DNA of 62,347 bases, filler included, from Perkinsus olseni (lineage: Eukaryota): NCBI GenBank assembly GCA_013115125.1. It is 2 parts of 2 records of this genome, joined end to end, with 100 filler letters (N's around TTAATTAATTAA, not from the genome) between each part and the next. Parts side by side here need not be neighbours in the genome. Positions count along the whole stretch, not along the records: positions 1 to 31,135 come from JABANN010000415.1; 1 more part is not named here. One strand, given 5' to 3'. Made by a program: the position numbers and the translations under genes. The notes under the pieces are model-generated. The model ran no database searches. It saw only the letters and a list, made by a program, of their open reading frames with translations, and was not told the origin of the DNA. Of this stretch, positions 13,293-53,057 are shown in pieces. Position 1 is the first letter of the stretch. Each line of letters begins with the position of its first letter.

Positions 13293-14340
13293 GGAGTGGT
13301 GACAATGACGACGCTACGGTTCGATGCGTTATGACTGTTTCGTATTCCTTGCATACGCCCACTCGCGTTTTTGGTAAAGTGATACCTGCTCTACCTGATA
13401 CAGTCTACCATGCGTCACACAAGATGAGACCATGGGGGGACTCGGGAACACTTTCTGGGCGAATAAAATGAGTAAGCTGGCCGGGCTTTCGGCTACGAAA
13501 CTGATGGTCCGGCAAGCGTGCGTGGAATGCTTGGGAAGTGTAGAAAACGGACTGGGTGAAGTGTTTTGGAATGAACGATCGTTGTGAGGGCGTGAATGGA
13601 TGAAACGATGTGCAAAAAAGGATTGACCGAAAAGATCGTGGATGAACTGGAGAGCCTCCAGTGGAGGCGGACGAACCGAGCTGGACTGAAGTATTACTTC
13701 AGAAGTAACGTGGACGAGTCTAGGTTTACGAATTCACTCATTGACGGAAAGATCGTGGCCGGAATATACCATGGGCGGAACGTGTCCGTTTGGAATCCAA
13801 ATAGCCCGGGGTAGCTCTATCCAAACCTTGGATGGAGGTGAAGATTCGCCATTCAGTATACGCACTGGTGGTTTATATTATCTCATCAGTGGTATAAACC
13901 CTTGCCAAGGGTCCTGACCAAGGGTGCCTTGGTCAGCAGTCGACCGTATCTAGGGTTCTAGGAGTACATCCCGCATCAGCTGGTACAGGGCACCACAGAG
14001 CGCTGACGAACAAAAAGTTTAGGACCGATGTCTATACCTCAGCGTGTCACTCAGCAGAGTCTAACAGTATGACCCACACTCCTTGGTGACGTTTGCTGGA
14101 GCAACACTCACGAGTGAAGTCGTCCTGCGGGGCTATGTGGGCTAGTGGCATGATAGTCATGCCATGATTCTCGCAAAGTCGTGTCTCGCTGCGCATACGC
14201 CTCTCGGCGACAGATCCTGGAGAATTCCGAAGTTCGCGAGAAGCATCGTATTCCGCGGCTGACTCAGCCGAGACTTCTTCTAATAGACCACCTAGCCTGG
14301 CTGAGTGGTCCATTGGAGGAAATCTCGCTGTGGATGCTAA

Positions 14341-14530
14341 AAATCCTGAACTGGTTTCTCGACCCCGCCTTCGATACGTTGCTATGAGGGCTGCCTGACG
14401 CCCAGTGGGGCCCGAGTTCGGTTCTCGTTTCCAGTAGCAGATTCGAGCCTAGCAGATTGTGCCGCAAGTTGAGACTGCCGTCGGGTCTCTGTCTCTGCAT
14501 GTGTCATGTCTCTGCATGAAAGTCCACGAG
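14341..14530 (+). repeat. diverged direct repeat, copy 1 (copy 2 at ~17754-17932)
   Basis: CCGCCTTCGAYACGTTGCTATGA..CTGCCTGACGC.CAGT.GGG..CCGAGTTC.GTTCTC ... TCGGGTCTCTG ... GAAAGTCCAYGAG is shared by both loci, with indels. Confidence 0.7.
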
Positions 14531-14546
14531 AAGGACCTGACTGTGT

Positions 14547-14591
14547 GGCTGTGTGGTCTAGTGGTATGATTCTCGCTTTGGGTGCGAGAGG
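14547..14591 (+). pseudogene. trnP: 5' part of tRNA-Pro(TGG), interrupted by a transposon
   Basis: GGCTGTGTGGTCTAGTGGTATGATTCTCGCTT-TGG-GTGCGAGAGG is identical to the intact tRNA-Pro at 26273 except for the first anticodon base. Confidence 0.92.
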
Positions 14592-15000
14592 GCTGCGCGA
14601 TATAGTGTGATATTCGCGCCGAAGGCGCAAAAAAATTCTTTTAGGCTGCTTTTTAACAGTAAATAGATGGAGAATACAGACGGCTGGAGGAGATTGAAAT
14701 AGCTCGCCTCTAATAATTAGAATAGCTGATAGCAGTAACGGAACTGGGTCGAAGCTGGATGCAGCATGGAGGGTGCAGAAAGTCACACATCTATTGGCAC
14801 ACAGCTTTGTGTTGCGCATGTATGCTCCTTGTTATTACCACTCACTGCGATATATGGTCCGAGTTACTAAGGGAAGTAGGACACACCCATACTACTGCAC
14901 CAGCTGCGACTATTGTTGAACAAATCATCAACAAGATCAACAATATGGATTATATAAGACGAACACTACATCATGCACATAACGCTGTTATTTACACTAG

Positions 15001-17274
15001 CTACCCCTCCCTCTGCATTTCTGAAGTTCGCGTCTCCAGCCACTCATCGAAAGTTCCGGGTATAGCCGGGCAATACCATCCGGCTGATCTACCAGCAATT
15101 CTGGGTTTGCGATGACCGGTAGCGGCGGTGCGAGGATTTTTGCAAATACTACAGCGCACCATCTTTCTGGGCGGCTCAGAAACTTGATCGTGAGCTTCGT
15201 GATGTGCACTCGCATCGGCTTCACCAGGTTTTGTATTCTGGTAACGAACACCTTCTACTGGCTCGCTTTCAGCAACCGGATCGGTGAGCCCTGGCTTGCA
15301 TTTAGAACGACCACGGTTGCGCTCGCCCGCCTGTCGAGCTGCCCTGATTCTCAGAAACTCGGCCATCTGACGGGTCTCACGCCAAACGTCGAAGTCGCCA
15401 TCATACGTAGGACAGTACCAAGGTCCGACGTGTCGTCGACCTTCATATACTACGTAGGGTCGGCGGTGTGTTCCTACATGGAAACACTGTGAGAAGCGGT
15501 CAGTCTCTGTGAGTCTGGACCTACCCTTTCGGACCTGGTGGCAGAGGCCGCACCTCACACCTTCTATGACTGGGATCTGCTTGGAATCCTTGTGTGGCAC
15601 GGGCGGCGCTGGTTCTGCAGGGAATTCTGGCTGGGCGACAGGTCTTGGTTGCTCCGCCTGGCTTGCTACAGCTGGCGTGTAAGGTTTTGACCCCGAACTG
15701 AGGACCGACCTCATGCGCGTTCTTCTCGCGCCTGTCTCAATATCTGGCACTCGAGCAGCCGCATTAGCCTGTTCTCGTTTCTTGGCGTTGGCATACTGCT
15801 CAATGTGGTATCGGGATGTATCGAAAATCAGAGCTTCCGGATTCTCAGCTTTTTCCGCCAGGAACCATCTAAAATACTCCTTGTAGACTGCATCAAAATC
15901 TTGACCATGTTTCTCGAGCAAGCTGTCAATCTTGTTACACATGATCAGACTGAACCTTTCGGGCCTAGTTTTTTGCAGGAAATTGGAATGTTCGCCGAAC
16001 ATGGACAGCTTCGCAAGACGTTTGGACGTACTGCCGCTCGATTCAGCCCGCGCGTGGCGTTGAAGCCGCTCTTCTTCTGCAAGTCCATGTTCTGCCTGTA
16101 GTATTTCCATGACGTGATCTAGGCTCATCCCGATTGCTTTGACCTCGTAATCGTGTAGCAAGTCGACATCATCAGACTCCGCTACAGTATCGGCTGGGCT
16201 TGGGGCTTTCTGTGTGTTATCCTCCACGTCTTCTTCGAGAAGAATTTTCCGAAGAGCAGCGGTATAGTGGAGACCAAAGCGTTCTCCTAAAAGATTTCAC
16301 GGCAACACAATATGTGATGGGATAGTCCCACAGTCGACATACCTGTATCGGTCATATTCATCACCAGCTTTGGGTATAGATCCACCCCTCCATTATCCAA
16401 CGCCGACCCTCTCAACCTCAATAACAGGTCATTATCAAGGAGAGGATATATCGCAGTGCTGTCCACCTTTCGGCGAGCACGTCGATTGTGGCGAGTGATG
16501 CCGTCCATAACTAGAACTTGAGTGGCTAGGGAGCCGACATTTGGGCCTGCCAGGAATTTGGCCTGCCACCCATGTATGCCTTCGAGTTGGCTGCTTCCTC
16601 TATAGCAGCGATAAGCGGGTAGAGATGCCTCAGGCTTCCCTTGAAAGTCTACGTTGCCGAGGTTTTCGTACAGAGGCAGAACGGATGGGTCTGGGTCAGA
16701 GACACATCCTCTTCGGATATGGCGCAGCTGAGCAGCGGAACACGAGTGAAACAGGTTTTTTAATCTGGCCGTACCTGGTTTTCCAGGCATTTATCGAACC
16801 CGTCGGGCCCGGGGGGTAGGAGAAGCTCTCCTTCCCACGATACGGACCTGGCCGCTTCGACAACGGCCAGAATCCGTTCTTCCAATTCTGCCGGTTGAGG
16901 TATTTGACGCCTCACATGACGATACACCCATGCCGGCGACGCTCTGATCTTTTTGGCAGCTTCTGCTGCATCCGAGATGCCAAAAGCCACCATCACGGAT
17001 TGGATGAGCAGGCGTAAATCGTCTTCATTGATCTTAAACATCGCCTGAGTGAAGAAGGAATACACATACGATATGGGTGACATAGCAAATGATCATGCGA
17101 CAGACGACGATTAGGTTGATCGTGATATGGCACATGATGATATGACAGATGATGATAAGGCTGACATGGCAGATGACGATATGGCAGATGATGATAAGGC
17201 TGATTTGGCAGATGATCAATGAATCAGTCAGCGAGCCATCTGTCGTCGACGAATGATGATCTCACCTGTGCCAT
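15001..17274 (-). CDS. N-terminally deleted Dada-type DDE transposase, 4 exons, 649 aa as spliced
   Basis: Exons 17274-17266 (MAQ), 17044-16775, 16727-16343 and 16286-15001 total 1950 nt, with all three GT-AG introns in phase. Motifs: HVRRQIPQPAELEERI, ENQ|LRHIRRGCVSDPDP, YRCYRGSSQLEGIH (catalytic-Glu region), TG|ERFG, and two C-terminal CxxC...H...WYCP...W Zn-finger-like units. These match from memory the Dada/DUF6729-associated transposase family. Confidence 0.8.
17075..17220. repeat. degenerate minisatellite (ATGGCAGATGATGATAAGGCTG-like units) in the first transposase intron
   Basis: Repeated GGCAGATGA(T/C)GAT and GATGATAAGGCTGA units are directly visible. Confidence 0.75.
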
Positions 17275-17294
17275 TTCAGAACGTCGCTCAGACG

Positions 17295-17329
17295 GCGAGA
17301 GGTCTCGAGTTCGATTCTCGACTCAGCCC
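17295..17329 (+). pseudogene. trnP: 3' part of tRNA-Pro (variable loop, T-arm, acceptor 3' strand)
   Basis: GCGAGAGGTC TCGAG TTCGATT CTCGA CTCAGCC C. Joined to 14547-14591 with one duplication copy removed, it gives a 72-nt cloverleaf. Confidence 0.9.
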
Positions 17330-18330: not shown

Positions 18331-19227
18331 CAGTGGAAGACCAAAGTCAGCCAAAGTAGACCCAATGACTTATGACTATAAGTCATAGTCAATGCAAGGC
18401 GAGGAGGAGCGTGAAGTTCATACACCTAGTTAAATGCGGGGGTCTAGAGTATTAGCTATGCACGTAGTAAACTAGCGCGATCGGCGCATAATGAGTGAAA
18501 AAATGCCAGCCATGATTATGCAAAGTGCTTCCAATACTCGGACACAGTCAGTCAGGCTCTGGCTCCCAGTGGAGCCGTTTCCCTCTGAAGCTCGAACCTC
18601 TGCGACTACGGAGTCGTCATGACTCAGTCGTGGCAACCGGGCGAATTTATTAACGCGCGAATAGCCAAAAGACTAGGAACCCTTGAACTCGGAGACATTT
18701 GAACCCTCTAGCTCACCCGTGCCACGTCGCCGCCTACACGTCTTATTTAGTTGTTGTCTCGACTCTTTTTTTGATGCGTGTGACCCTTTGGCGCATATCC
18801 CATCAGCTGACTTGCACGAGTGGCCGTTGGTGTCACTCCCTCGTCATCATACGAGCACTTTTTATCTCTATAACGGGAAGTCAGTGACGAACCGCTTGAC
18901 ACAACCACTAGTCTACCAGCGGTAGAGGCGCCTGTTACTGGAGACAAAGAGCGCCTACAGCATAGCTAGGCTAGGCTAGATCTAGTTGTGGCCTCAGCCT
19001 AGCCAGTTCAAAAGATTCTTGGCTACATGTGCCAGAATCGTCAAGTTGATGCTCCTGTCGAAAGTAGAACGATGCTCTTTCTGGTGTATGGCATACACTG
19101 TATGCATTTACATAGCCCACGTGTTGCCGTGGAAGCCACGACACATACAGCGTTTGTTACATGGTATCTGCTTCGGATTGTTTGCCTCCATGCTGCAGCA
19201 TACTCCCATAGGTTCGCTGCCTTCCCT

Positions 19228-20539
19228 ATGCGCATCTCGACCATAATTGTGTTCTCTCTCGCCTCGCTGATCGGGGCTTCCGCTCCTACAAGTGATACGA
19301 TCGTGTCCATCAAGTCTGGCTCCGCTGATGTTGATATTCGTCGCCTGCCGCAAATTATGAGGGATGCTGGCATGATTCCCGACCAGAAGATTGCCTCCTT
19401 CCTCGATACGGTCGAGATCACCCCTCTTGAATATGTTCACTCGCAAGTGGTTCAAACTTCAGCCTCCGCCATCGACAGCGACAGCGACGCTCTTTGTAAG
19501 TTCGTCACTGTGGCCAGCAGCAAGCTCTCGTTGCAATCTGAGTGCGGCGAGGATATCAGCGGGCAAGTCCAATACGATGACGACCTGAACGTCGGCGATC
19601 CCGATGCCCGCTATCAGAGTCCTTGGAAGTGGATGGATATGGCTGAAGTATGGCGGCTTGCTCTTCCCCATGTCACCCGAGATGTCAAGGTGGCCGTTTT
19701 GGACTCCGGTATCGACTGGGCCGACCCCGACCTCGCTCCCTTGAAGAGAACTCTGAAGAAGAAGAAGAGTGGTGGCTACGTGGATGGAGGATGGAACTTT
19801 TTCACCAACTCGTCGAACTTGACCTACGGAGAACCTCACGATACCAAAGTATGCAAAGTTCTTGCCGCCAAGGGTAACAACTCCGCCGGTATAGCTGGAT
19901 TCGCTCCCTTCAACGTCATTGACGCTCTTGCAGATAGTGGATGACAATAGAAATCTGCCTCTGTCTCAATTCCTGGCAGCCCTGAACATGGCAATCGACT
20001 TAGAGGTAGATGTGGTATCAATGTCTCTCAAATATGAATTCCACATACGAAACCATCCCCTGTATGTTCTGATGTATAACGCTCTTCGTTATGCACAGCA
20101 GCACAACATGCTGCTCGTGTCCGCCGCTGGCAACGACGCCCGCGAGGCCTCCTACGTCTACCCCTGTTGGTTTGGTGGTCCACGCAGTATGTGCGTCGCC
20201 GCTCTGAGTGATGACAGAACTGAGAATACGCTCGCTGGCTTTTCGAATTGGGGCCAAAGAGTCGACGTCGCGGCTTATGGTGAGGGCATCTTCTTCGGCC
20301 GTTGGGAGAACGGTACTGGAAGGTACTTCTACGGTACGTCAGCCGCGACTCCGATTGTCTCTGGTATTGCCGCCATACTATTATCAATGAACATTGAGCC
20401 GGGGATGGTGAAACGGCTCATAGATGCTAACTCAGATCCCATCTCTTTTGCACCTTCCCGAAGTATACTAGGTGGAGCCCTCAATGCGCTGAACACGGTG
20501 CAGCACGCCATACACATTCTCCAGGCGAAGTTCACGTGA
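19228..20539 (+). pseudogene. secreted subtilisin (peptidase S8), frameshifted near 19905-19920
   Basis: Signal peptide MRISTIIVFSLASLIGASA; catalytic motifs VAVLDSGID, PHDTKV..VLAAKGNNSAGIAG, SAAGND and YGTSAATPIVSG are split between ORFs 19027-19944 and 19919-20539, with no usable intron at the junction. Confidence 0.85.
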
Positions 20540-25200: not shown

Positions 25201-27350
25201 AGTCTGGACAACTCCCGGCCTGCAGTGCATAGCCTACACGCCTCCAACAGCTGCCCCAGCCCACCTTGCGCGTGGAGCATCGCTACAGCCTCTCCATGAT
25301 CTCTGATTCTAATGAGATCCGATCGGAAGTCCGCTTCGACTCGCTGCGCTGCGTAGTCGAGGACCTGCCCAGAACGCATCAGCAGGTTTGCAGCTCCTTC
25401 TTGTTGATTCTTACAATCAATCGCTGGCCGACCAAGTGGGTACCCAGGGAGCCCAGAAGGCAGTATATCAGGGACGTGTATCTGCGACAGGGAGATGCCC
25501 TCAGTGGCCGCCACCGCTGCTGGCGAAAGGCCAGCTCCTCCTTACAGTAGCCATCCCGGGAGTCGAAGGCCGTGAACGCCGAACGCGTCGATAGGGGACA
25601 ATCGAAACAACAACGGTAAGAAGACAACTGAGAGAGAGGCGTCCTCATTACTGTGCGGGCTGACTACCCACCTAGAGTCCCTCCAGAGAGCAGCATGCCC
25701 GACACGAGAGCCCAGCTGGCATCAGTAAAAACATTAACCTGAAATAAATGCAAGTCTGAAAACGCCATGAAAACCACTTGAACTCACATCGTTCGCTATC
25801 CGCTGATCAGGATTGTCCAAGGTCGTCGTCCTCGTCGTGGAGCCCTCCAGACCAACCAGTTGCATGCGATAGTGACTGAAGGAAATCCGAATGAGAAGAC
25901 CTTCGCCGAGGAAGGCTGAACCCTCACGCGGCGTCCTTCAACCACATCTTCTGCAGCCTCGCTGTGTGATGGGCTCGCCACTCCAAGAGAAACATCGAGC
26001 GGAGGTACATGCCATAGGCCGAGAGAAGGATGTCCCCGAGGACGCAGAAAATCTGCGATGATGAGAGGCAGTCGGTGGAGAGTTTTGTGAGTAGACTTCT
26101 TACAAAATTGAAGATGTTGAGGAGGAAGTTTTCAAAGTCTTTGGCTTGGATGCAGTTCCAATAGCGAGCGGTGATGTCGTTGACCAAATAGGAAAGTCCA
26201 ACATTGCACAGGGAGAGCAGAGTGAGCACCTAAACACCGGCTTGGGGAACCAAGATTAATAACAAATACATCGGCTGTGTGGTCTAGTGGTATGATTCTC
26301 GCTTAGGGTGCGAGAGGTCCCGAGTTCAATTCTCGGCACAGCCCATTCCCATCAACTCACCATCGCGTATCTCCATGAGCTCTTCTTCCCCGTTCTTCCC
26401 GAAAAGTACGGCCGAACCAATGATAACATCTTGTTCACCTCTAAAGGGTTCGTGCTGCCTGAAAATGGCACGATCATCCGCGGAGTTGAAAACTCCGCTG
26501 CTGCTGACCTCCTTGTGTGTTCTCCTGCGGTGTCGAGATATTCTCATTGAAGTCTGTCTCAGACCAGCGCAAGTGAAGATACTCGAAGACGATAACCGAG
26601 ACCTGACGAGGGTCCTCGACGACGGTAAGGACAACCGTGAGAGCTTACCAAAAGGAGCCCGAGCATCGCAGCGTATACAGGCCATGGTTGAGCAGACTTC
26701 CGACCCTCGTCATCACCACCGTTAGCTACCGCTGGTGGACGCCCCGCCTGCCGAGGAAGCACTCAGCCGTCTTCACAATAACAACCGGCGGAGCGATGAT
26801 GAGGCGGTTCGTTGAAACAGCGAGGACAATCCGATCACAACAGTGCACGAGGTTCACCTCACCTTGTTGGTGCCGTTCTCACTGGGGCCGACGATAAAGG
26901 CGTTCATAAGACTGTCGGTACTGATGAGAGACGACTCTATCCCCTGCCTCCACATGAGTGGCTCATCTATCTCTACCAACTCGCTACCACGAAGGGCTCC
27001 GGCCTGAATCACCACATGACCCGGGTTCGATCCCCGGACGCGGCATTTAATCATCTCACCGCCCCTCTGCTGTCCAAACCTATTGGCAGCGCCTTATGAG
27101 TCAGCCCTGGAGCCTCGCTACACGGGCTAGTAGAAGTGTCATCGCACGGGGCCGGGTCCACGAGGGAGTCACCACCGGCCAGCAAAACCTAGGAAACAGA
27201 AAACCAACGCCCGTAGGAAACGCCCGAGAGGGCAACTCCCAGTCGTAGAGCAATTGCACCTACCGTTTGAGGAAGCAGCACGACTAGTAGGCCGCAGAAA
27301 AGATGCACCTTCGGAGCCTTCGGGACCACTTTGGAAGATTGAGGACAGAA
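22276..27350 (-). CDS. ABC half-transporter, ABCD/SbmA-YddA-like subfamily, multi-exon; 5' end uncertain (~26955-27350)
   Basis: TMD exons LVRPYFSG...[23 protein letters not shown]...YWNCIQAKD and [10 protein letters not shown]; Walker [22 protein letters not shown] (~23860-23920); [10 protein letters not shown]; signature [13 protein letters not shown]; Walker B WLFLDE; SVSH; final exon GKLVKSEE then TGA at 22278-22276. Confidence 0.88.
26273..26344 (+). tRNA. trnP: tRNA-Pro(AGG), intact, in an intron of the ABC gene on the opposite strand
   Basis: Acceptor GGCTGTG/CACAGCC, anticodon stem CTCGC/GCGAG with loop TT-AGG-GT, T-arm CCGAG-TTCAATT-CTCGG; 72 nt. Confidence 0.95.
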
Positions 27351-31135: not shown

Positions 31136-31235
31136 NNNNNNNNNNNNNNNNNNNNNNNNNNNNNNNNNNNNNNNNNNNNTTAATTAATTAANNNNNNNNN
31201 NNNNNNNNNNNNNNNNNNNNNNNNNNNNNNNNNNN
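31136..31235. other. assembly gap with artificial six-frame stop linker
   Basis: 100 nt of N surrounding TTAATTAATTAA (31180-31191). Confidence 0.99.
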
Positions 31236-31348: not shown

Positions 31349-34300
31349 TATTCCAAGGTGCTCGAGAGGGTTAAATCTGCTCGAATTCGGGCTAAGATCG
31401 TCCACGCTTTGGACTTGGATGGCGATGGTGAGTACAGTACTCCTGCGAGGCCTGGGGGAGCCTGCCTTAGATGTGCCGGTTTTGCAGGGTCGGCCCCCCC
31501 CCTTCCTCTATTCTCAGATAAGCTCAGTGAAGAGGAAATCCTCAATCTGCGGATACTCCACCGTGCCGAGTTCCTCCTCCTATGTGAGAGCCTTCTCTAC
31601 CACGGCTTCGCTACCATCACTGAGGCTGGGGGCAGCAGTTTCCTGGAAGGAGCCAGGAGGTCAGGAAAGGTGGGGTCGGGCACTCCGCTGCCAACCTGCA
31701 GTCGAGGATGCCTGTCAGACGCTGGTTGATGCCCATCCAGAAGCGGCCTTAATAGAGCTGGACTCGGTGAGGGAACCATCACTTGCTCATCTCACCGAAT
31801 CTTGCATTTCCTCAAGTTATGCATGCTTCTTTAGATCTACCAAGCGCATAATCCGAGTGCACATCATCACGCCCCAAGACAAGTAGGACGGAGATCAGCA
31901 CTCAACAATTTTCACCGTCGCTCCGCTGTTGGGCAAATCTTAATTTTCGTTCTCAGGGAAACCCTCTGCAATGGTCTCGACGGTTTGGTCATAATGAGAG
32001 GAGGACGAAGCATCACTGGGGGAAGAGGAAACAGGGATATGGGAGGACTTTGAAGGCTGGTGAAGAGCAGCACATCGGAGGAATAGCCGCGGCGCGTCCA
32101 CCGCTGGGCAGCATGGCGTCAGTGGCGTCCGACTTGATTGGAGCAGTGAGCAGTGTAGCAAAGGGGAAGAGGGAGGGGGCTGCCGGCGTTGACGGTGGTC
32201 GGGACGAAGAAGGGGTTGCTGAGGATGATGGAGTAGAAAGTAGAAATGCGAATGTTGGAGGCCTCAAGGGAGAGCAGCACGGAGGCAGTCATTACACTGA
32301 GTCTGTAGAGGAGGAGAAGTCTGGTCATACAGGGGACCACTACAGTGAGACTGTAGAGGAGGAGAAGTCTGGTCATACAGGGGACCACTACAGTGAGACT
32401 GTAGAGGAGGAGAAGTCTGGTCGTGGAGGGGACCACTACAGTGAGACTGTAGAGGAGGAGAAGTCTGGTCATACAGGGGACCACTACAGTGAGACTGTGG
32501 AGGAGGAGAAGTCTGGTCATACAGGGGACCACTACAGTGAGACTGTGGAGGAGGAGAAGTCTGGTCATTCAGGGGACCACTACAGTGAGACTGTGGAGGA
32601 GGAGAGGGACGACAATGCCAAGAAGGAATACCACCGCGAAGTGAATGTGGAGCCCACTGTTGGAGAGGGTTCGATCCCGGGCCCCGACAGAGCTGCGGTA
32701 GGAGGGACCACTCCGACAGCTGGGCCAGCTCCAGAGGAGGGGGTACAGGCTGATAATGATGATGATGAAATGGTCGTAGAGGAGTGGGACGATGAGAAGG
32801 ATGATGATTACGGAGCTGACCTACAAGGAGGACCTCAGAGTAAGGACAACAATGCTTGGAGCATCTCTATGCACGTAATAAGCCTTGGGAGCCGCTAAAG
32901 CGGCGGCCTGCACACAGCCACCACGCCCATTATTCATATGGTCAGGAGTACCCTTCGAAGGGCTTCGAGGAGATCACCGGACACACCCTCAGTGACACAA
33001 TCTCCGTAGAGGAGTTCCAGCAGATCGGTGATCGACTAGGGGTCAGCCAGGCCTACAATAAGGAGGTGAGCCCTTCCCTGCAGCAAGGCGGTTCCTCCAC
33101 GCCTTTCTGCTGCTTGTGACAGCTCTTCGGCCTGGTGGCGGGCAGGGACGCTGCAGCCCTTGAAGGCGGTCGATATGCTGATCTGTATAAGAGCTTCAAG
33201 GACGTCAGGTGAGGGGCTTTACGTCCAACTTGCGGGACCCCTCCCATCAGGAACTTGGCACGAGTCTTCCACATCTTGGATGCCATCAAAATGGAGATGC
33301 GGTTTTCCGATCTTGATCTGGACCGGGACGGCTTCGTCTCCCTGTCGGAGTTTGGGTGCGGAGATTGCAAGTCGGACACGGTGTCCGAAGAACAATGTGT
33401 AAGTCAGAGTAGGCGGAGCGAAGCTGCTATTCTTTCCGTCTTTCAGATGGCCGTTGGAGAGCTCTTCGCTTACGTTGTCGATGGCTTCAACCAATCGTCC
33501 ATCTCTCGACGCAACTGGCAGAAGCTAGTCAGTGTTGGGTCGGAGGTCATCCCACCGGCGGTGTCGGTGGTCCTGGAAGGGTGAGGAGAGTGACACTGTG
33601 TAGTGGCTATTGGAGTTGGGAGATTGTCAGCATGGGAGAGGTTCCTAGGCTAGCTTCCGATGAAGAGTTCATAGAGCAGTACATGGCTGAGGCGAGCAAG
33701 TATCCAGGCGCCAGGGAGGAGGCAGCTGCGTTCCTCAAGGACGGGTCTGGTCGGTCGGCGTACCATCCCGATTACCGTCCCTCACCCCGGGGTCGATTAG
33801 GTCAGAACCGCAACACCGGCGTCTTAAGAGTCGCAGCAGCTGGGCCACGGCTTGCGGGTTTCCTGCCAAGTTCTTTCGACTTCACTCGAGAATTATCAAC
33901 GCTATTCAAGGCAGACGCGAAGGAGCTGGACGAGGGAACCTTCGAGGAGATAGGCCGTCATGCCGAGGCCGCTGGGGACTGGTTCAGAGCCAAGGTAAAC
34001 CCTCACTCAACTGAGGGGCAAACCCCCCTCCTGCAGTCCTTCGGAGCCCTCCTCTATCCTATCGGAGAGACCTTGCCGATCCACATTGTGGATACCTATG
34101 TGGCGGCAAGGAGGGGCGGGTAGGGCTCGTACTACTTCCTAGTGTAGTGATGGTTAGCGTAGTTACCTACACGACTTGGCAGCCTCTCTTGGGGCTATCA
34201 GTCTGGCTGCGAGGTTTGATGCTATTGATTTGGATGGAGATGGCAGCCTTAGTAGGAAGGAGCTGGCAGCGAAGGAGTGGAGGAGTTCCATCGCGGGGTC

Positions 34301-37300
34301 GATGGTAAGTAGTGTCGGGTGAAAGCGATGGATCAATCTGAACACCTTCGGGAGAATGAGTTCGACTCGCACCAGCGGGAACCGGGCGAAAATACCATTT
34401 GTTGCATCGCCTAACAGCGAGAAGTAGTTTAACGTGTGTTGGGTGCTTAGATTGAGTCAGGGCCAAAGCGTAACAAGGTAGGGAGGCCGATCCATAGTCT
34501 CTCCAGAGAGGAGGTCAGATAAGGAACTCATCATGCCAATGATAGAACCAGAAGGAACTATCACACCGCTTGATATGTGTCTGCGTGCAGCCTCTGTCAA
34601 CTGTGAATTGGGGGAGGAGTGGTACGCGCTAAAGCACTGTTGAGAAAAATCGAGATTTCAAGTATTCCTGCATTGTCCCTTTGTGCAACTATCGTAGCAT
34701 GATTCGCTCCTCCCCATTAAACAATTCTCCTTCTCTCAGCTATTCACCCTGCTTGACCTGGACCGCAACGGAAGCATCAGTCGTCCTGAGTGGCAGCAGT
34801 GGGGGTATCTGGTGGCCCAGGCTCGGCCGCACATGCGGGCTCTGGCTCTGAGAATCTTACCGGAGATCAAGATCTCAGCCGGTGAATACGCTGAGAAATA
34901 TCGGGCTGCTGTGAAGGAGCTGCCGTCTGATGAGGTTGAGCTGATAGAGAAACGTTTGGACTTCGATGGCGATGGTGAGGATCGAACCTGTGCCGTCGTG
35001 GGAGCATCGAGGCCAGCGGCCAGCTCACACGGTTGTATCAGTGGCGAGGCGATGTTCGTCTTGTTAAGGTAAACTGTCAGAGTCGGAGATCAGCCTCCTC
35101 CGAGTAGTTGGTGGTGGACGGTCCCTCCGAGAACTTCTGTACAGGGAGCTGTTCTTTGGCTTTGAGATTGGCAACACTGGCACTGGCTCGGGTCAATCTC
35201 TTCTTCAAGAGTCGACCCTCGCCGACGACGACCGAACTCTGACGGGCTTCATGGTAGTTTTCAGAACAGTAAAGCTGACGGGATGGTACCTCTCAGGGCC
35301 GCATAGGAGCCGTCCAATCCCCATATGTCGAGTCAGCGCGCTTCGCTTTCCAGTTCCTTGATACTAACAACGACGGCAAGCTCTCGGATGTAAGGTCGTG
35401 AAACTTGGGTTGCCTGAGGATCCCGGCACTACGTCCTTCTGGTTTCAATACCGGGGGGGGCAGCCGTGTCTACGAGAGAGGATCGGTTTGCTAGGCTGAG
35501 ACGAAGGAGTTCGAGCTTATGAGGATGCTCTTCGCGGACTACGGCTACCTTCGCTTCATCTCTGACTTCACGGCGTTGACCGTCTTCAAGGTGGGCCAAC
35601 CCTCGGCCAGCCCCCGCTGTATTCTGATCTGCTCCAGAAGTTGAAAGGCCCAGCGGGGGCTGTGTCCTTGAAGGGGCTGATCAAGTCGGCCAAGGCCGGG
35701 GACTGTACTCCCAGTGAGCTGGCATTGGAGATCCACGACGTGGGTCGGGGGGTTGTATGTTGATACGATACGTCTTTCACCTAGGCCTTCGAGATAGACC
35801 TACCCGATGATACTGTTGAGGTCCCGTGGGCTATCTGGCGGCTCATAGTGTGGCGGCACCTCACCAACGAGCATGTGAGTTGGTCGAGGTGCTCTTGTGT
35901 CGGCCAGTGGTTGGACGCTGTCAGACGGTGAACCAGCTGGAGGGTCGCTCACCCTTCGCAGCGAGGGATAAGGAGGACTACCATCATACTGCCCATGCTA
36001 GGAGGCGATTGCCTCATCCACCACCTCATGTCACTCGACGCTCGTACGCCCCTCTTGGGCCAGAGGTCATCGTCACTGCCACCCTACTTCCGCTTTTAAC
36101 CCTCCTTGCTGCCTTCAGGACGATGCCTTCCTGCGGACTTTGATGAACGTCAATTAACGCCGTGCCTCACTGAGTGGGGTCGTCATGAACTTCGGCTCGA
36201 TGAGACGGCACAGTCGTACGATTTCCGGCATGGGCTGCTGTTGTGTTGAAGTCAATCATTCTTCCACCCGAAGCTGACAGCGTGGACAGCGTTCGTCGCA
36301 GTGCCTCGGACATGCTAGCAGTGGTGGCCCTCCTAGCCCAGCGGCTGCTCTCCTCAACAGGAGTGCCGCACCAAGAGGCTCACCAGACACGATGTCTGTC
36401 GGATATGGCTGCGGCGGTGTGTGGACCGTACGGTGAGTACTTCCAACAGGGTGCGACGGGCCTCCCACAGTTGATCGAGGTGGGCGGCCGCACCGACTAC
36501 CACCCGCCTCTCGAGCTCCCGTGCCATCAGATCGTTGAGGCTGCGGCGAGGGTCTGCGCTGACTACCAGTACGACATGTTAGCCTATCCGCAGTGCGGTG
36601 TAGGCCTTACGCACCTTCGAGTCCTCTCATAGCGCTGCTGCATTCACTTAGTGCAGCGTCTTACTTGAGGACCTCCAGCCGGCCAGCTTCATCCAGCTGG
36701 TCAACTCCTTCGCCCTCGCCCCTTTGCCAGCGCTCAGGTCTCTGCCCATCGATCGACGGCCCTCTTCGGTAGGCCCGTCTCCATTGTCACCGTCGGAGTA
36801 TCCTCCTGTAGGTGATCGTAGGGGAGGTCCGACTCCTTGAAGCTCCCAGCTCCTTCGCTTGGCCTCCCATCGAGACGGTGAAGTCCGCGATGTGAACATG
36901 TTCATGGAAACGCGGTCTTGGAACGCTGTATGCTATTCAGATTGCGTGCTCTGGTCGATGCTGGCTTTGACAGCGATTATTCTGTTGTCTACGACACAGG
37001 GAAGGACCCCAACAAACTTGTCTTCTCTGTAATGCCTGGTCGAGTCGTAGTTGCCGGATGAGCTGCCAGGCGGATCCGAGGGCCCAGCCTCAAGCTGTCG
37101 ATGATCACGCTGTTGCCGCCAATGCGGCCAGCTGGGCTATTCACGTGAGTCTCCAAGGCGGCCATCGTGTCACCCATTGCTTCCTCAGAACGCTCTGCAA
37201 TCGATGGTCGGCGGAGCGGAGGTCGGTATCCCCTTCGAGGTGGAGGTCTATCGAGGGTCGTCGCTAGACATCTCCCCCTTAGAGGTTGAAGGGGACATCG

Positions 37301-40300
37301 AGATCACCAACTGGAGCCAGGCTCCAGGCTTCAGGACCACAGTAGCCCAACTCCCACTGCTGCTGCTGCCGGTCATCAGAGCCTACGCACGCTAGTGCTC
37401 CTCAGTTGGCTCGGATACTGGAAGGTCCGGCTGGGAACACTGCCCACAGAGTTCTTCGACACGGTGAGACACTGGCAGTAACAGCTACTATCTGTCAGCT
37501 AGCTTATATCACTTTGCGTTATCAGTAATCTAGTTTAGCCCACTCTGGAGCGGGGGCACGGGTTCGATCCCCGGCTCCAGCGCATTTACAAAACCCGGTC
37601 ATCGCCAACCTCTTCCGTATCCTTGAGTAACACGCAGCAGAGCTCATGCAGGTATCACCGGAGACGAGGTCCTCTTGAGTTCCCGTAAGGAAGGCGTCCT
37701 CCTGGCCTACGAAGTCCCGGGCCCCCACATTGGGTGAGTTGGACTTCGGTAAGGCGGCCCTCTATAACCCCTCTGTAGATTCACAGCGTACGCCGAAGCC
37801 GCCTGGGGAGGGGCTCGATCTCATCTGGAGGTCCTCGATGACCTGCGGGCACTGCAGCGGCGGCTCCTGCAGTCCGGTATCGAGTCCTCCGTAAGGGTTC
37901 GGGACGTGAGGATAATGAGCGGCTTGTCGTATAGGGCCAAGCGGGTAGTCCAGGGGGGGTCGCCCGGGGCTGACGGGTGGGCTGCTTCAGGCGTTGTACT
38001 CGTACTGTTCCCACCTTGACCATCACAGCCTGCCGTTCATGGCCCCGACTAGTGTGCAGGAGGAGTGGGGCAGGGAGGAGGCTCAAAGCGAGCTGATGTT
38101 TAGGATGATCACATCTTATTACGAGGTTAAGGGGGGCCGCGGAGGGGACCCTGCAAAGGTATCAGCTGAACGTCCCTTAGGGGAGGTCCTCGAGACACGA
38201 TCTCGGAAGAGGAGGTTTGGGGAGCCAGGACCGTTGGTGGATCCTCTGCCGGAGATGGACGGGCAGCCAGTTGTTGAGGCTACGCCAATCGAGGGCGGGA
38301 GAGCAGAGGAGGGTATGCGGGATGAAGGTGAAGGAAGCGACGGGGTTATTGAGGGGGACCAGCAGGAAGCGGCAGCGCTAGATGATGGCGGCCGTGAGGG
38401 GGAACCTGAGGAGTTTGTTGGAGGCCGGGAGGGTCTGGAGGAGGGCGGACGGTTTGAGGAGCAAGTTAGCCCGGTCAATCAGGAGGATCTCCCGGATCAT
38501 GAACAGGTCGCTGCATTTGGATATGACAAACCCACCACACCGGGAGACCGTCATCCCGAAGAGGAGGACGGTCATCCTGAAGAGGAGGATGGTCACCCTG
38601 AAGAGGAGGAGGATGGTCACCCTGAGGAGGAGGATGGTCACCCTGAGGAGGAGGATGGTCACCCTGAAGAGGAGGACGGTCACCCTGAGGATGGTCACCC
38701 TGAGGATGGTCACCCTGAGGAGGACGGTCATCCTGAAGAGGATGGTCACCCTGAGGAGGAGGACGGTCATCCTGAAGAGGACGGCCACCCTGAGGAGTAC
38801 GGTCATCCTGAAGAGGACGGTCACCCTGAGGAGGACGGTCATCCTGAAGAGGACGGTCACCCTGAGGATGGTCACCCTGAGGAGGATGGCATCGGCGAGT
38901 ACGTTGGTAACCTCGAGCAGCTGAACACAGCCTTGATGGGGCCGGAGAGGTCCAAGGACCTCTCTTCACGGGAGGTTATAGCTTCGAGTGGGGAGGACTT
39001 CGATCCCGGCCAAAGTGAGGAGGGGGTGCCGGAGTTACCGGCTGTGGGAGTCAGTGGAGACCCGGGGCAGATGGAGGAGGAGGACGAGGATGGCGTCCCC
39101 GAGGACCATCACGAGCCAGATCTGAGCTCTCCTATGGAAGACTTTAAGCCAGAAGCGGCGGCCGAGGATGTTAACCCTATCGCCCCTATCGAGGACTTTG
39201 GCCCAGGCTTTGGCCCAGAAGAAGCGGTCCCCGAGGATGGTAACCCTACTGGCCCTACTGAGGACTTTGGACCAGGCTTCGACCCAGGAGAAGGGGTGGC
39301 CGAGGATGGTAATCCTACTAAGGACTTCGGACCAGGTTTCGGCCAAGGAGAAGGGATTGTCGAGGAGCCGACCGGGGTGGCGGGGCCGGGAGTGGATGAT
39401 GATCTCACTTACCACTTCGATGAGGATACGATGGAGGCAGCAGCCCGTCTCGCACCATATCCAGTAGATAGCAGTGCCCTCCGTCCAACTGCCAGTCCCT
39501 CCACCAAGCCTGCAAAAGAACCATTGGAGGGTCTCAGTAGGCCTCCTAGGAAGTCTACGGTGGAAGATGATTATGACGATACGGTTGTTGAGGACGCTGC
39601 CCGCCGACCGAGTACTGCCGAACCTACTGATATCATCACCACCGAAAGTCCTCAGCCAACGAAGGTTACTACTCCCGGGAGAACCAGGGCCACTGGTCCT
39701 CCAAGAACAGTAGGGCATTTGAGGCTGCCGGGCCTCAATCCCGTGACAGACGCCGAGATTGAGCATCATGGTGCCGCTGAGATCGCGGTCAACCCTGTTG
39801 TTGGAGAGGCACAGCCTCCGGAACCAGACTTCGGTCCCGGCTTTGACGGCTACGGCGGAGACACAGACGCTGGACCGCTGTGGGAGGACCATGGCGAGGA
39901 TGGGGTGGTAGAGGACGTCGATGAGGGTAGGGAGGGGCTGTTGGAGCCGGACCATGGTGAGGATGGGGTGGTAGAGGACGTCGATGAGGGTAGGGAGGGG
40001 CTCTTGGAGCCGGACCATGGTGAGGATGGGGTGGTAGAGGACGTCGGTGAGGGTAGGGAGGGGCTCTTGGAGCCGGACCATGGGGAGGACGGGGTAGTGG
40101 AGGACGTCGATTACGGAGAGACAGAAGACGGGGAGGCCGAGGAAGCTTTCAACGACAAGTTATTCGGGAAGGAAGGGGAGGAGGAGACCGATAGGGCCGG
40201 GGCGGAGAGGGTGGGCAATACTCTTGGGGGTGAGGCTGCTGCAGCAGCCGACAGAGTGAGGCCTCCTTCCGGGGCACGGCCTGCCAAACCAGGGCCGAGG

Positions 40301-43300
40301 GTCCTACCTTCCAGGACCCACCGCTATTCACTGAGGGACGGCGGTGGTGGCTTTGCTTGCCCAAACTGCACTGAAGGGTGCGTCCATGGCTCCTCTCGGG
40401 AGCGCCCCACTCTCCCCTCATCAGGCCCTACTACGACCCCCTCTTCGATCTCCATCCATATGCCCCGACCCTGGTATACAACCCACCCAGCCCACACCCT
40501 CCTGACTGGGTCCTCATACCGATGTCCCCGGCACGCGATGGAGTGCCGAGAGCTTCGGCGGCCTTCCGCCGCAGGTGGGCCATTCTGCTGCATCTTAGCC
40601 AGGTGAGTTGCTCTCAGGTTGGAGGAGGCCTCCACTACCCCACGGGGACGCAAGGATGAGCTCTATCCGCCACCGCAATGGCAGGCTTTTGAGGGGATGT
40701 AGGGATGGCGCCGCCGGCTACGATTCTACAGGATCTGAGTAGATACGAGTCCGGTGAGGGCGAACCTCGAGAGCCCACGCCCTCTGATGCAGAGTTCATG
40801 ATCGGCATGAGGGGCTTTGTAGGGCTGTTGTGGTATGAGGAGGGTTGAGGAGGTGGTCTCAGACTCCTCCGGGGGAATGCTTGGGTAGGGTCATGCAATG
40901 GATCGACAACTCGTCCGTGTACCGAGTGGAGGAGATACGGTCCCTGATGGAGGAGGTGGGCTGTCCCTCCTCACCGTGAGAAGAAGTTGTTGCAGGTTTA
41001 CGACGCGAAGGCGCCGATGCGTGACAGGCTGGTGTTTGGGACTTTCGTGAGGGAAGGGTTGCTCGGAGAGGATCCTCATCGTACTGCCTTCCATCGACTG
41101 CAGAGGGGGATCGAGCATCTCAGAGGGCGTAGGACGGTTTGCCCTTCACGACCTCCGAGACGAGCAATCTCTTGTTAGTCCTGGACACTGGGGAGCCCCT
41201 TCGGGGAGGTCTGACGGCGGCCACGGATGCCTGCTTGTTGTTACTGAGGGCACCGGAAAAGCTACCGATGATCAAGGTCCCTCGCCGCGGGCCCATCTTG
41301 GGCTATTGACCTGCTCTCAGCTCTTCCGTGATGCCCCGGGTGATGTGTACGTGGTGATGGACGAAGACGGTGATGGCCTTATCAACTTACCGGAGTGGCT
41401 GAAGTTTGGCCGTACCATACGGGCTCCGGCATTCGTCTTCACGGAGGAGGTGGGAGTACCTGCCTTAGTGATGCCTAGTCATCGTGGTCGCAGTCCTTCG
41501 CCTACTTTGCAACGAGGGGCGATCCAGAGCATATCAGAGTGAAGGAGATCGATGAGGTCTTCCGCACCATCGCCCAGGGGGAGTAGGGACCGTCTCCTTG
41601 CTGCTGCTGCTGCCGGGCTCATCCCGCTCACTGTGTTAGGTTGCTCAGCACAATGGAGGGTGGGGATGGCTACCCTCGTTTGGTGGCGGACTCCCTTGCC
41701 CTCGAGAGCCGCTTCTCCCAGTTGGACAATTTCAGAAGCTTCGAACTATCTATTGAGGAGCTCGGCTGGGCCCGGTCTCTATCCGGCAGAGGGGTGGGCC
41801 TGGCGACACTTTTGTAGGGTGAAGTCGGTTGCCTCAGTTGTTCCACTACCTCGACACCAATCGTGACGGGTACATCTCCCGGTACGAGTGGCAGAGGATG
41901 CTCATTATTGATAGAGCCCCGATGGCCGTCAAGCGCTTCGCTCTCTGGTGAGGGACTCTGGCTGTGGCTGGGAACGACGCTTCGGCGACAGGCTGACTGA
42001 AGGCTTTGAGGACGGCCCTTTTCCTATTCCCGAGAGGCCCTTCCTCGCTGCAACCCATGAGAAGCTCCTTCGGCTGCCTCCTGGGTATGTGCGGCTCATC
42101 GATAGGGCTCTGGACTCCCTCGGGGATGGTGAGTTGGACGTGTGTGAGAGAGCAGTGGGACGAGACTTGCAGGCCGACCCAGTGACGCGGACTACAGCAT
42201 CCTACGGGCCATTGGTGGTGGCACTGAGATGGCCAACTTGGTGGCTTCGGAGGTGCTACTCGGGTACGGCCAACGACCTAGGCTCACCTGGCACTCGATG
42301 GCACGGGATAATAGTACTGGCCTGACAGAGGAACCCTTGGATGAGTTGCCTGACCCGGGGGCTGATGGTGTAGCGGAAGAGGATGGCGAGGAGGAGCAGG
42401 TCCTTTCTGGGGCCCTCGACGAGGGGCTTCCGGGGGCTTTCATGCAGCTAGGGGAGGGCGAGGTAGGGTGCCCTGCCGCTCACGACCAGGGTCAGCTATT
42501 GTGATTTCCCAGGTGGCGGACGGTGGCAGCATAGCGACGTCTCCGTATTCGATAGGGACTCTCGCCTTGGGCCCGACGGTATCTTACGAAGCCTTCAGAG
42601 ATTTCGGCAAGAGCCTGAAGGCTCCGGCGGGGGCATTTTCTGAGGAGGTAGGAAGACCGAGGATGGAGAGGGCCCTTCGTCCAGCTGCTGATTGCCTCCG
42701 TGCAGGTATTCCATCTGTTCTCTGGAGGGGACGAGGGGAGCCCTCTGAGCGTGGATCTGTTCGATCGGCTGCATCTTGCTTCGAAGGACATCAGGTACCG
42801 TCGTCCGGTCATGGTGGTGAGGTATGGGTTTGTGCTTAGGAACGCTCGTCGGCTCTACTTCGTGTTTGATTCGCTCGTTATTGAAGCCAAGTTCCGTGCG
42901 ATGGACCGGAATGAGGACGGACGGCTGAGCGGAGAGGAAGTCCCTCTCGAACCCTACCAACTTTGGGTGGGCATCTCAGCTGTTGCTCCATCTCTGACGA
43001 TTGTTGGCTCGCTGCAGTGATTATTTTGAAGGACGTCGTCCACAGGTGTTGGATGCTCTGGACCGGGACGCATCGAACTCGATCAGCCTATCGGAGCTGC
43101 AGGGCCTGGCTGCCATGCACGCTGAAGCCGCGCCCCCGAGCGCGGTGTTGCTGAGCAGGAAGTGAGTCCCTCTGTCGAAGTCACCTTTACCCACACCACG
43201 CCTCAGGATCTTGGCTTCGTCCCAGTGGACGCCGGAGGCCGTGAGGAAGGAGTTCGAGAGACTGTCACCGTATGAGCAGGCGGAGGTTGAGCAGCTGCTG

Positions 43301-46300
43301 GACGTCAACGGCGATGGTAGGCCTGCTGCCGCTACGGCGCTGCGCTTCGCCATAGCGTCATGCAGGTTACGTTGACGACCATGAGTTGGGATTGATACGC
43401 TTCCTCGCTGAAGGGGAAGTCCTCGACGTGTTGCTGCCACCGTCGTTGTACAACGCCGATAGACTGTCTCTCGATGGGCCGTGGACCAGAAAGCAGTTCC
43501 TGGCCTACTCTGGGAGACTGCAGAGCAACCCCAGTGCCTTTAGTGGGAAGGTCCTGACGGTTCACAGCCCTTGCGGTTAATATTCAACTGACTGTTAGTC
43601 GTTCGAAGCCCTCGCCCTGCTTGGAGAGGGCCCCGTTGAGATTCCTGCTGAGGTCTTGAGGGTTTGGCTGCTTGCAGCGGGGCAGAGGTGAGAGGGAGCA
43701 GAAGGAGAAAGAAGAAGGGACGATAGTCTTCAGGCGTGTGAGGGAGCTGCTGAGAGTCTTCAGTTTGATTAACACTGAAGCGTTCTTCTCGAGTGTGGAT
43801 ATTGACATGAGCGGGAGGATAACCCCTGATGAGCTGATGGACTTACGGAGAGACTTTCCGTTGCTCAGCACTGCCGAGGTCAGATTTGGCGCTCAGGTTG
43901 GGCGAAGGAGGCCCTGGGGCTGCGCGGCAAGGCTTCTTCGTACTTGTCTGTGTGTCAATACTCTTCGCCGGGCGATGACTGATACGGGCGATCACCTAGA
44001 ACAGTGTATTGGCTCAATCCATGCGACATCCTGAGGGGGTGTGTGGTGGCCGGGACCCCTCATTCAGTACGGGAGATGATGGTGGTGATGGAATAGCCCT
44101 CCGACCTGATAGGAAGTCAATACCAACTTAACCGGACTGTTCCTTCGAAGCCACCATCACAGTCCGTGACTTGCAAAGCGCTTCAGGCGGCCTCCACAGG
44201 CATTCGGAGGCGTCGTGATGGTCAGATATTCGACACCATCGGGAGGGTGGATTCTGACGGCATCGCCTACCTCGATCGACCCGCCCTGCAGCAGCTCACC
44301 TACACCTTCACGGCGCCCTCGTCGGTGTTGGTCTTTGCCCTCGAGTAATGCCCGCCAAGTTGCCGCCTCGTCCCCTCTGGACAATTCTCAGCATCGTAGC
44401 CGAGTCCGGTGGATCGGACATCCGCCTAGCTGCGAGTCGGGGTCTACAGGATGCAGCTCCTGAGGATAGGAAGGCGATTCTGGACACGTTCGATGTTGAC
44501 GACAATGGTGGGTCTCGGCTTCAGTGGAAGACACCTCCTGTCTGTCCTCGTCGTTGCACCAGGCGAGCTTGACGAGGAGGAGGCCCGCCTGTTGCATCTT
44601 GTGGGACGGAGCGAAGCAATGGAGCTATTCAATGCCATCCAGTACCGTGGCTTCAGCGTGGTCATGGAGGCCTCTTCCAAGGTAATGTCAACGGAGAGTG
44701 TTGTCATGTGGACACCAGTGCGAGGTAGGTTGCTCCCTCGGCGCTGCTTGAAGTCGGTAGGTCGGACGGCGAGGAGGCGGAGGTGGGCTTGTTGGTGCCG
44801 TCTCTGCCCGGGCGATATGACCTGCCATCACTTAGGCTTATGCCACTGCGTCGGGCTACAGGGCGGATGCTGATGGGGATCGTCGCCTGTCTGTGGGAGA
44901 GTTCAAGGACTTCCGAGACGCTATAGGAGCGAGCCATCAAGTGCTGTCGCGACAGGTAGGTGGCTTCCGCTGGTCTGAGGTCTGAGATAGAGATGCGCTC
45001 CCAGGTTTTCAAAGACCTTGGTGGGGACGGGGACGGCGTGATCGAACTCGACTCCCTGGTGGAGCTGCACCTCTGCACCAAAGACCATCGGTGGGCAAGC
45101 TCAAGGGGGTGTCGGCCCTCTCAGTGTCGTGCACCTTAGGACAGTCCGTCTGATCTACGCCGTAGTGGAGGCGCAGCAGCTTCACTCCAAACTCGTCGAA
45201 TTGGATCGTGATGGTACGGAGGAGCTCAGCGTGCAGGAGCTCGAGGGCGTCGGCATCGAACCTGAAGAGGCGGGTTGGGTAGGATGTTCGTGCCGTTACG
45301 TCTGTCTAGAGGGATCCGCGTCCAGTTGGTGCAGCTCCTTGATGCCGATAACAGCTCATCAGTTTCGGCAGCTGAATGGATGACCATGGCGGGGTTCTCC
45401 TACGAAGCTGCGCCCGACGGGGCGGTGTGGCTGGCCAGCAGGTAGGGAACGGCAGCTCCTCGTGCCGCTGTGAGCAGCACCTCAGGCTGCCAGCTCGAGA
45501 GAAGGAGTATGTGTTAGACTCGGCTAAGGTGATGGCGACCGCACTGCAGCTCCTGGACAGTCTGCCAAGCGACGAGATTAGAACTGTCAAAGACTTTATT
45601 GATGCAAACGGAAATGGTAAGTGCCCGTATGAGGCTCCGAGATACCCTATTCCGCTCACTACGAGCCCAATCTACTCATGCGGTGTGCTACAACTACACG
45701 AGATGCTACAACGAGATGGTGCAGTTTTGCGTACTCCTGTCACAGGACTCCTGTGGTATGATCAGGTCAGCTGTCTCCCTCGGAGTTCAGCCGTCTGCGG
45801 TTGTTGCGTGACATGCGCCCAATAGCGGACGCCGTCCTACCCCTGGAAGGAGCCCCGGTGGGCCCGCCTGTCCCGGAAGATCTGACCGCTCAGGCGTTCG
45901 AGGAGTTGGGCAAACGGATTGGAGCCTCTGAGAAATTGTTCGGCTCTGAGGTGATGGAGTTCGATCTGGTGGTGCAGTGCCACAGGCTCTGTCAGGCCTT
46001 TGAACTCTTGTCGGACCCTCGACGGCAGCTCATCCCCCTCAGCGTCCTTGCCCGGTGGATGGAACTGCGCAAAAGAGGGTAAGGCAGTGCGATGGATTCC
46101 AGTTGGTACACTACAGTAGACGCTAAGCAACGCAACACAGACCTGGTCGTAGAGCTGCCAGCGCATCGGATTCGAGTCTGATTGAACCGGCGACGGCGTT
46201 GGACTTGAAAGTGGCACACACACGGTCCTGATCAGGGCCCTCCGCTCGACAGCAGCGATGTTTTCGGCCATGAATATGGACGCTCTATTCTACAGTATCG

Positions 46301-52755: not shown

Positions 52756-53057
52756 AACCGGTTTCACGGCTACGGGAAGCTGCCCCCGTTGGAAGGGGAG
52801 AGTGGTTGCCATATTGTGGAGTCTTTGGACTTAGTGTGGACATGGCGGCGAGGCTGTTGGGTTACATAGTTGCTGCTAATGGGTATTCCTTTTTGAGGCG
52901 GAATGGGAAAATAGTGTCTTCGTTATCAAATTTTGAACTGTAGCAGCAATTCCATAACACTTAGCAGGAGCGATGCCATTCATATTCTCTCCAACGGGGT
53001 CATGCGTTAGGGAAGGATCTGAGCTCCTCTGTTTGATAGTTCATTGCTATACGCACC

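Follow-up and report, generated by a model that had tools for sequence, protein, structure and literature searches.

A tRNA-Pro gene of Perkinsus olseni split by a putative, internally deleted DNA transposon of the Dada superfamily

In a 62-kb stretch of Perkinsus olseni DNA (the window, along the whole of which all coordinates count), a tRNA-Pro(TGG) gene is split by an insert that is very probably a non-autonomous, internally deleted derivative of a P. olseni cut-and-paste transposon of the Dada superfamily. The two parts of the gene share an exact short duplication, and the insert carries, antisense to the tRNA, a truncated intron-containing gene homologous to a family of much longer transposase-like proteins.

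The two parts of the tRNA-Pro(TGG) gene, 45 and 35 nt long, lie 2703 bp apart, and both carry the octamer GCGAGAGG (Table 1). The insert was cut out by script together with one copy of the repeat (14592-17302), and the joined sequence was analyzed with ARAGORN. As anticipated in the original prediction, this restored a 72-nt tRNA-Pro(tgg), whose cloverleaf is complete, with a single T.T mismatch among the acceptor-stem pairs. The duplication occupies positions 38-45 of the 72-nt gene, that is, the 3′ strand of the anticodon stem and the first bases of the variable loop. A 21-nt target-like pattern with up to three mismatches matched the window three times, at the two junctions and in an intact tRNA gene, compared with 0.01 matches expected; the split gene is therefore a real observation rather than a product of chance.

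According to ARAGORN and Rfam, the sole intact tRNA gene in the window is a tRNA-Pro located 9 kb downstream of the split gene, in which the identical target is empty. The near identity originally claimed for this neighbor holds (67 of 72 positions match the restored gene), but its anticodon is AGG and not TGG. Since a compensatory change at one T-stem pair sets the two genes apart, they represent different isoacceptor genes. Upstream of the split gene, decayed tRNA-Pro-like copies were found at 14299-14369 (score of 56; the best shuffle reached 35) and 14131-14188, with further fragments at 14236-14269 and 14408-14427, which points to a small cluster of tRNA-Pro genes in tandem. The ~230 bp between these upstream fragments showed no similarity to the element ends. 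With a second tRNA-Pro gene and decayed copies nearby, the target is locally multicopy, as expected for Dada, which inserts into multicopy small RNA genes.

The largest minus-strand open reading frame (ORF) of the insert is 100% identical to a deposited P. olseni protein (P0001; KAF4656412). Removal of three introns of 47, 56, and 51 nt, all of the GT..AG type, joins four exons into one open coding sequence (CDS) of 1929 nt and 642 aa with a single terminal stop, so the antisense intron-containing gene described at the outset is present; the three peptide motifs quoted for it were likewise found in minus-strand frames. The CDS and P0001 agree at 486 of 487 aligned residues and share the first two introns. 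Two CCHC-type motifs begin at residue 477, at the end of exon 3, and at residue 593. No Pfam match above the cut-off was obtained for the ORFs of the insert. The last ~37 residues of P0001, spliced after ...VRKG, derive from a spurious exon outside the insert; the frame used by that exon (14047-14448, minus strand) overlaps the tRNA-like pseudogenes, so that the exon looks like an annotation artefact.

To what family does this protein belong? A HMMER search with P0001 as the query returned 222 proteins at E<=1e-3, 23 at <=1e-10, and 5 at <=1e-30. Source names were looked up for 30 hits, while conservation and Pfam counts were taken from 50 long relatives; the denominators of the conservation counts are the relatives with a residue in the respective column. 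The closest relatives are further proteins of P. olseni and proteins of P. chesapeaki, with identities of 44-63%. The named sources among the 30 hits are Perkinsus, ray-finned fishes (Cyclopterus, Nothobranchius, Hemibagrus, Leuciscus, Doryrhamphus, Chaenocephalus, and Ataeniobius), the mollusc Lottia, a chytrid fungus, Chromera, and Heterosigma; the rest are metagenome proteins. In alignments, the relatives share, from the N to the C terminus, a Cys finger (Pfam DUF6729), a first Asp (D1, ...ADHT...), a second Asp followed by CC (D2, ...VDxxCC...), LDxxH, the blocks HxxxGCxSDP, YRCxRGSSQLEGxH, and DTGExFG, and a C-terminal CxxC...H...C motif. D1 is conserved in 31/33, D2 in 38/41, the D and the H of DxxH in 46/48 each, and the E of the QLEG block in 49/49. 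The pattern C-x2-C-x9-H-x8-C occurs in 2 relatives, and one P. olseni relative (P0002) has His at the second finger position. The spacing between D1 and D2 is 67 aa, compared with a published 68 in Dada-U6_DR.

These features can be compared with two papers on Dada, which are cited here from excerpts of their text (PMC3706591 and PMC8869645). In the published Dada transposase, a CCCC finger at the N terminus and a CCHC motif at the C terminus accompany a DDE triad whose second D is followed by DxxH, and in Laccaria and Ectocarpus Dada a DEDDy exonuclease lies between the second D and DxxH (PMC3706591). Among the 50 relatives, the 3′-5′ exonuclease domain PF01612 was detected in 24 and DUF6729 in 21; in two of them (P0019 and P0033) the exonuclease is located between D2 and DxxH, and the Perkinsus members of the family are without it. 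All features of the published transposase are thus seen in the full-length relatives of a protein encoded antisense to the tRNA in a Perkinsus genome, consistently with the Dada-like element first proposed. Because the architecture and distribution of the relatives match the published description, we assign the insert, as a putative member, to the Dada superfamily. Among PDB sequence profiles, the family profile matched WRN (3.6e-11), EXD2, MUT-7, and Pol I exonucleases and no transposase; Dada is likewise reported to have no BLAST similarity to other transposases (PMC3706591). No paper on DUF6729 was found in the literature, and the main text of PMC8869645 mentions none of the fish and mollusc species from which the relatives come.

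Compared with these relatives, the window copy is truncated. Its protein aligns to residues 410-874 of P0002 and to residues 709-1089 of a 1091-aa relative (P0152), with homology starting at about its own residue 12, directly after the DxxH of the relatives. The deletion breakpoint is placed just after DxxH because homology to the full-length relatives begins only there. With seven relatives as TBLASTN queries, N-terminal homology was detected nowhere in the window. The zinc finger, D1, D2, and DxxH are missing, while the E block and two CCHC-like motifs are retained, and the encoded protein corresponds to the C-terminal ~60% of the transposase; what had been described as a transposase gene is a gene derived from one. 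Since both catalytic aspartates are lost, the copy is predicted to be unable to encode an active transposase and would be non-autonomous. Within the retained part, 10 of the 10 near-invariant residues are intact. Between the ORF and the 3′ part of the tRNA lie ~210 bp, which include tandem repeats of 15/39 nt. The same truncated N terminus occurs in gene models of five P. olseni assemblies, which represent two haplotypes differing at 10/540 aligned residues.

A full-length autonomous copy, which the original prediction had suggested looking for, was not found among proteins: a search for longer proteins gave no full-length protein of the same family, although this search was weak and also missed known relatives, and a search for near proteins returned only the other lineages mentioned above. 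A metagenome profile search for relatives with their flanks yielded one 3.7-kb contig (L001), which had no tRNA or Rfam match and was uninformative. Three further P. olseni models (P0157, P0185, and P0189) are without the segment bearing the second D and/or DxxH and restart at ...QAxFKxNE..., where the homology of the window copy begins; this may be a shared exon boundary or a recurrent deletion point.

The exact repeat flanking the insert is 8 bp long, and with one copy of the element the length of the target-site duplication (TSD) has to be inferred. Terminal inverted repeats (TIRs) of the insert and a second copy of it within the window were sought and not found, and terminal hairpins were no better than those of shuffled sequences (z of 0.05 and 0.60). 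Of five TSD models tried, only a 6-bp model, with GCGAGA duplicated on the tRNA strand, gives symmetric ends: CTGAGCGA is a 7/8 inverted match of CTGCGCGA, both at nt 4-11 of their ends. In this single copy, the target flank also matches the sub-terminal 8-mer at 6/8 positions (5 of them consecutive, AGCGA) and at the same distance. Equidistant sub-terminal inverted 8-mers and an element end resembling the target flank are traits of Dada-U6 and Dada-U1, and apparent 8-bp repeats of Dada-U1 and Dada-tIA_PMar have been reinterpreted as 6 bp (PMC3706591). An exact 8-bp repeat is thus present as first described, but we favor, from this one copy, a 6-bp GCGAGA duplication, which fits the element ends better; the two extra G's that make up the apparent 8-bp repeat would probably belong to the element end. 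In the transposase sense the target reads TCTCGC and then AC, resembling the published Dada targets TTGCGC/AG (U6), TGGCGC/AA (tN/tR), and TGAACGC/AG (tL).

We propose that a Dada DDE transposase, supplied in trans or by an intact progenitor before the deletion, recognized the anticodon-arm sequence of the tRNA-Pro gene. Staggered cuts would have allowed the element to integrate antisense to the tRNA, with duplication of GCGAGA. The copy would retain ~225 bp of the 5′ end, including the tandem repeats, and ~2.5 kb of the 3′ part. The insertion would have inactivated this tRNA-Pro(TGG) copy, a loss that may be tolerable given the other tRNA-Pro genes nearby.

Insertions of this kind have precedents. 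Two hot regions for Dada in tRNA genes are known, nt 8-13 and the anticodon arm, and elements inserted in the anticodon arm lie antisense to the tRNA (PMC8869645). The anticodon-region site, which had seemed unusual in the original prediction, is therefore in an already known hot region. Fish Dada-tL, -tA, -tD, and -tV have anticodon-arm insertions, an antisense transposase, and no TIRs, all as in P. olseni, and fish Dada duplications are 6-7 bp, ending in GC followed by A, as would hold here under the favored 6-bp model. However, the fish families target Leu, Ala, Asp, and Val (plus Gly) in ray-finned fish hosts, instead of Pro in Perkinsus, and their proteins are ~20-30% identical to those of the window's family. 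Nearer in genus are Dada-tL, -tIA, -tIB, -tG, and -tY_PMar and Dada-2, -3, and -4_PMar of Perkinsus marinus, which share the superfamily and the use of tRNA targets (PMC3706591). Their targets are tRNA-Ile, Leu, Gly, and Tyr, with no target stated in the excerpts for Dada-2, -3, and -4_PMar (PMC3706591), and four of the five tRNA-targeting families are placed at nt 8-13, in the A box (PMC8869645). The P. marinus Dada elements are reported to be intron-less (PMC3706591), whereas the P. olseni element has three introns and is found at nt 38-45.

Truncated or inactive Dada copies are also on record in the excerpted literature. Zebrafish Dada-U6N1_DR is, like the window copy, an internally deleted, non-autonomous element consisting of a short 5′ end and a longer 3′ part at the target site of its family; its target is U6 small nuclear RNA, and a long open truncated ORF is noted only for the window copy. 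The domesticated Dada-U6 of Cyprinoidei, dDada, is a Dada-derived protein without a functional catalytic center, as is the P. olseni one. In contrast, dDada is a gene of full length whose D residues are mutated and which occupies an orthologous host locus, while in P. olseni the N-terminal half is deleted and the copy, flanked by a duplication, sits inside a tRNA gene. A Trichomonas retrotransposon of the non-LTR type (LTR, long terminal repeat), NeSL-1_TV, is likewise reported to be tRNA-Pro-specific (PMC4640811), but it encodes a reverse transcriptase and an endonuclease, and its mechanism and protein are unrelated to those of the P. olseni element.

Family-wide specificity for tRNA-Pro we infer from the one insertion observed, and this leaves some room for a Dada lineage without strict specificity, or for aberrant mobilization, with a chance landing in tRNA-Pro and no tRNA-Pro-specific family behind it. 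Fish Dada-tV copies have been found in tRNA genes of several types and, in one case, in a hAT element (PMC8869645), and Dada-2, -3, and -4_PMar are without a named target in the text at hand (PMC3706591). We nevertheless regard a chance landing as unlikely: tRNA genes are a tiny fraction of the genome, the insertion has the orientation known for Dada and falls within one of its known hot regions, TCTCGC followed by A resembles the published targets, and the element end mimics the target flank.

The open reading frame raises another question, namely whether it is a retained or domesticated transposase fragment at a fixed locus, such as a repressor acting on related Dada elements or a host protein that binds DNA. 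Such a role would accord with the open 642-aa CDS and its three canonical introns, with the intact near-invariant positions, with the truncation shared by both haplotypes across the five assemblies, and with the existence of dDada in cyprinoid fish (PMC8869645). Yet other Perkinsus species yielded no orthologue, the gene models come from automatic annotation, and the perfect flanking TSD suggests a young insertion, for which an open frame is expected anyway. The open frame fits a young deletion, while a retained function is possible; on balance we consider a domesticated fragment quite improbable.

Could the element belong to another DDE superfamily, such as hAT or P, which make 8-bp duplications, or MuDR or KDZ? 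The apparent duplication length is 8 bp, DxxH is common to hAT, P, Kolobok, and MuDR (PMC3706591), and weak feature-level leads in Atlas pointed to Mutator-like (0.80) and KDZ (0.78) clusters. Both Atlas scores are, however, under the tool's own bar, the hAT, MULE, P, and KDZ Pfam families were matched at E<=0.01 by 0/50 relatives, compared with the counts given above for DUF6729 and the Dada-typical exonuclease, and TIRs are absent, which makes such an origin very unlikely. Reading the insert as a giant tRNA intron or as an artefact of assembly is hardly credible: the insert does lie near the anticodon loop, but it is flanked by the duplicated 8-mer, follows the 3′ strand of the anticodon stem instead of occupying the canonical intron position, contains a transposase-derived gene modeled in five assemblies, and is part of a stretch found in two studies, in a total of 8 sequencing runs (word share 0.93-0.96 for six of them and ~0.51 for the other two, indicative of presence only); the duplication and the coding content refute this reading.

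Several observations weigh against a truncated Dada transposon in tRNA-Pro as described here. Dada membership is based on architecture and distribution, and not on alignment with a named Dada transposase. The D2-E spacing of 188 aa in P0002 and 217 aa in the fish relatives departs from the published 176, and the three introns differ from the intron-less P. marinus elements of the 2013 paper (PMC3706591). The sub-terminal 7/8 repeat is short and was equaled by 69/20000 random pairs from the insert interior, with five models tried. One copy is seen, from which both target specificity and TSD length have to be derived. A fully open ORF with all ten near-invariant residues could mean a very recent deletion or selection for another role.

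Table 1. Positions of the split tRNA-Pro gene, the inserted element, and its antisense gene in the window
Feature	Coordinates	Strand	Remarks
5′ part of tRNA-Pro(TGG), 45 nt	14547..14591	+	Acceptor, D arm, anticodon arm, and left duplication copy; 97.8% identity to the first 45 nt of the intact tRNA-Pro
Left copy of the apparent 8-bp duplication GCGAGAGG	14584..14591		Likely true 6-bp TSD GCGAGA at 14584-14589
Insert, 2703 bp	14592..17294	-	Putative internally deleted Dada-superfamily DNA transposon; single copy in the window; no TIRs
Insert under the 6-bp TSD model, 2705 bp	14590-17294		
Sub-terminal repeat CTGCGCGA	14593..14600		nt 4-11 of the left end in the 6-bp model; matches 17284-17291 in inverted orientation
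Exon 4	15001..15473	-	Second C-terminal CCHC-type motif in full and the remainder of the first; stop TAG 15003-15001
Intron 3, 51 nt	15474..15524	-	GTAGGT..TAG; in frame; absent from protein models P0170 and P0168
Exon 3	15525..16286	-	Starts inside the DTGERFG motif
Intron 2, 56 nt	16287..16342	-	GTATGT..TAG
Exon 2	16343..16727	-	Conserved HxxxGCxSDP and YRCxRGSSQLEGxH blocks; family-invariant E of the latter taken as the third catalytic residue
Intron 1, 47 nt	16728..16774	-	GTACGG..CAG
Exon 1	16775..17083	-	Annotated ATG 17083-17081; second ATG 17041-17039
Sub-terminal tandem repeats, period 15/39 nt	17123..17215		Between the truncated ORF and the element end
Sub-terminal repeat CTGAGCGA (transposase sense)	17284..17291		nt 4-11 from the right end
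3′ part of tRNA-Pro(TGG), 35 nt	17295..17329	+	Opens with the right duplication copy (17295-17302)
Intact tRNA-Pro(AGG)	26273..26344	+	Identical target sequence unoccupied at 26299-26319

The neighboring ORFs look like host genes of ordinary kinds. One, at 19003-20539, encodes a subtilase (PF00082) that introns divide among frames, and another, at 53040-54503, an amino-acid transporter (PF01490, 4.2e-48). In the interval 32001-52000, directly after the N runs at 31136-31179 and 31192-31235, the G+C content rises from ~0.50 to 0.56-0.60 and the GC skew is strongly positive. An 885-aa open frame at 37949-40606 has no Pfam match.

As for novelty, tRNA-Pro is absent as a Dada target from the excerpts of PMC3706591 and PMC8869645 and from our literature searches, in agreement with the initial impression that it is not among the known targets; the sole tRNA-Pro-specific element found in those searches is the non-LTR retrotransposon. 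Nothing relevant was found in the P. olseni transposable-element literature among the matches listed. The target tRNA is thus probably new for Dada, although Repbase may hold an equivalent entry. The window copy itself is, on its sequence features, a dead, truncated Dada copy, and its mode of insertion is one already on record for the superfamily. It is also conceivable, although we hold this reading as tentative, that it represents the first tRNA-Pro-specific Dada lineage ("Dada-tP"), the first Perkinsus Dada in the anticodon arm and not the A box, and the first intron-bearing one in the genus, with a conserved truncated ORF in the surviving copies that may act as a transposition regulator.

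The finding leaves the known picture of Dada biology unchanged. If other copies confirm the site, tRNA-Pro would join the Dada targets, and anticodon-arm targeting would occur in Perkinsus as it does in fish. Such elements may be of use in learning how Dada transposases read their targets, which is relevant to site-directed integration tools, and the filled or empty state of the site could be a strain marker for this shellfish parasite.

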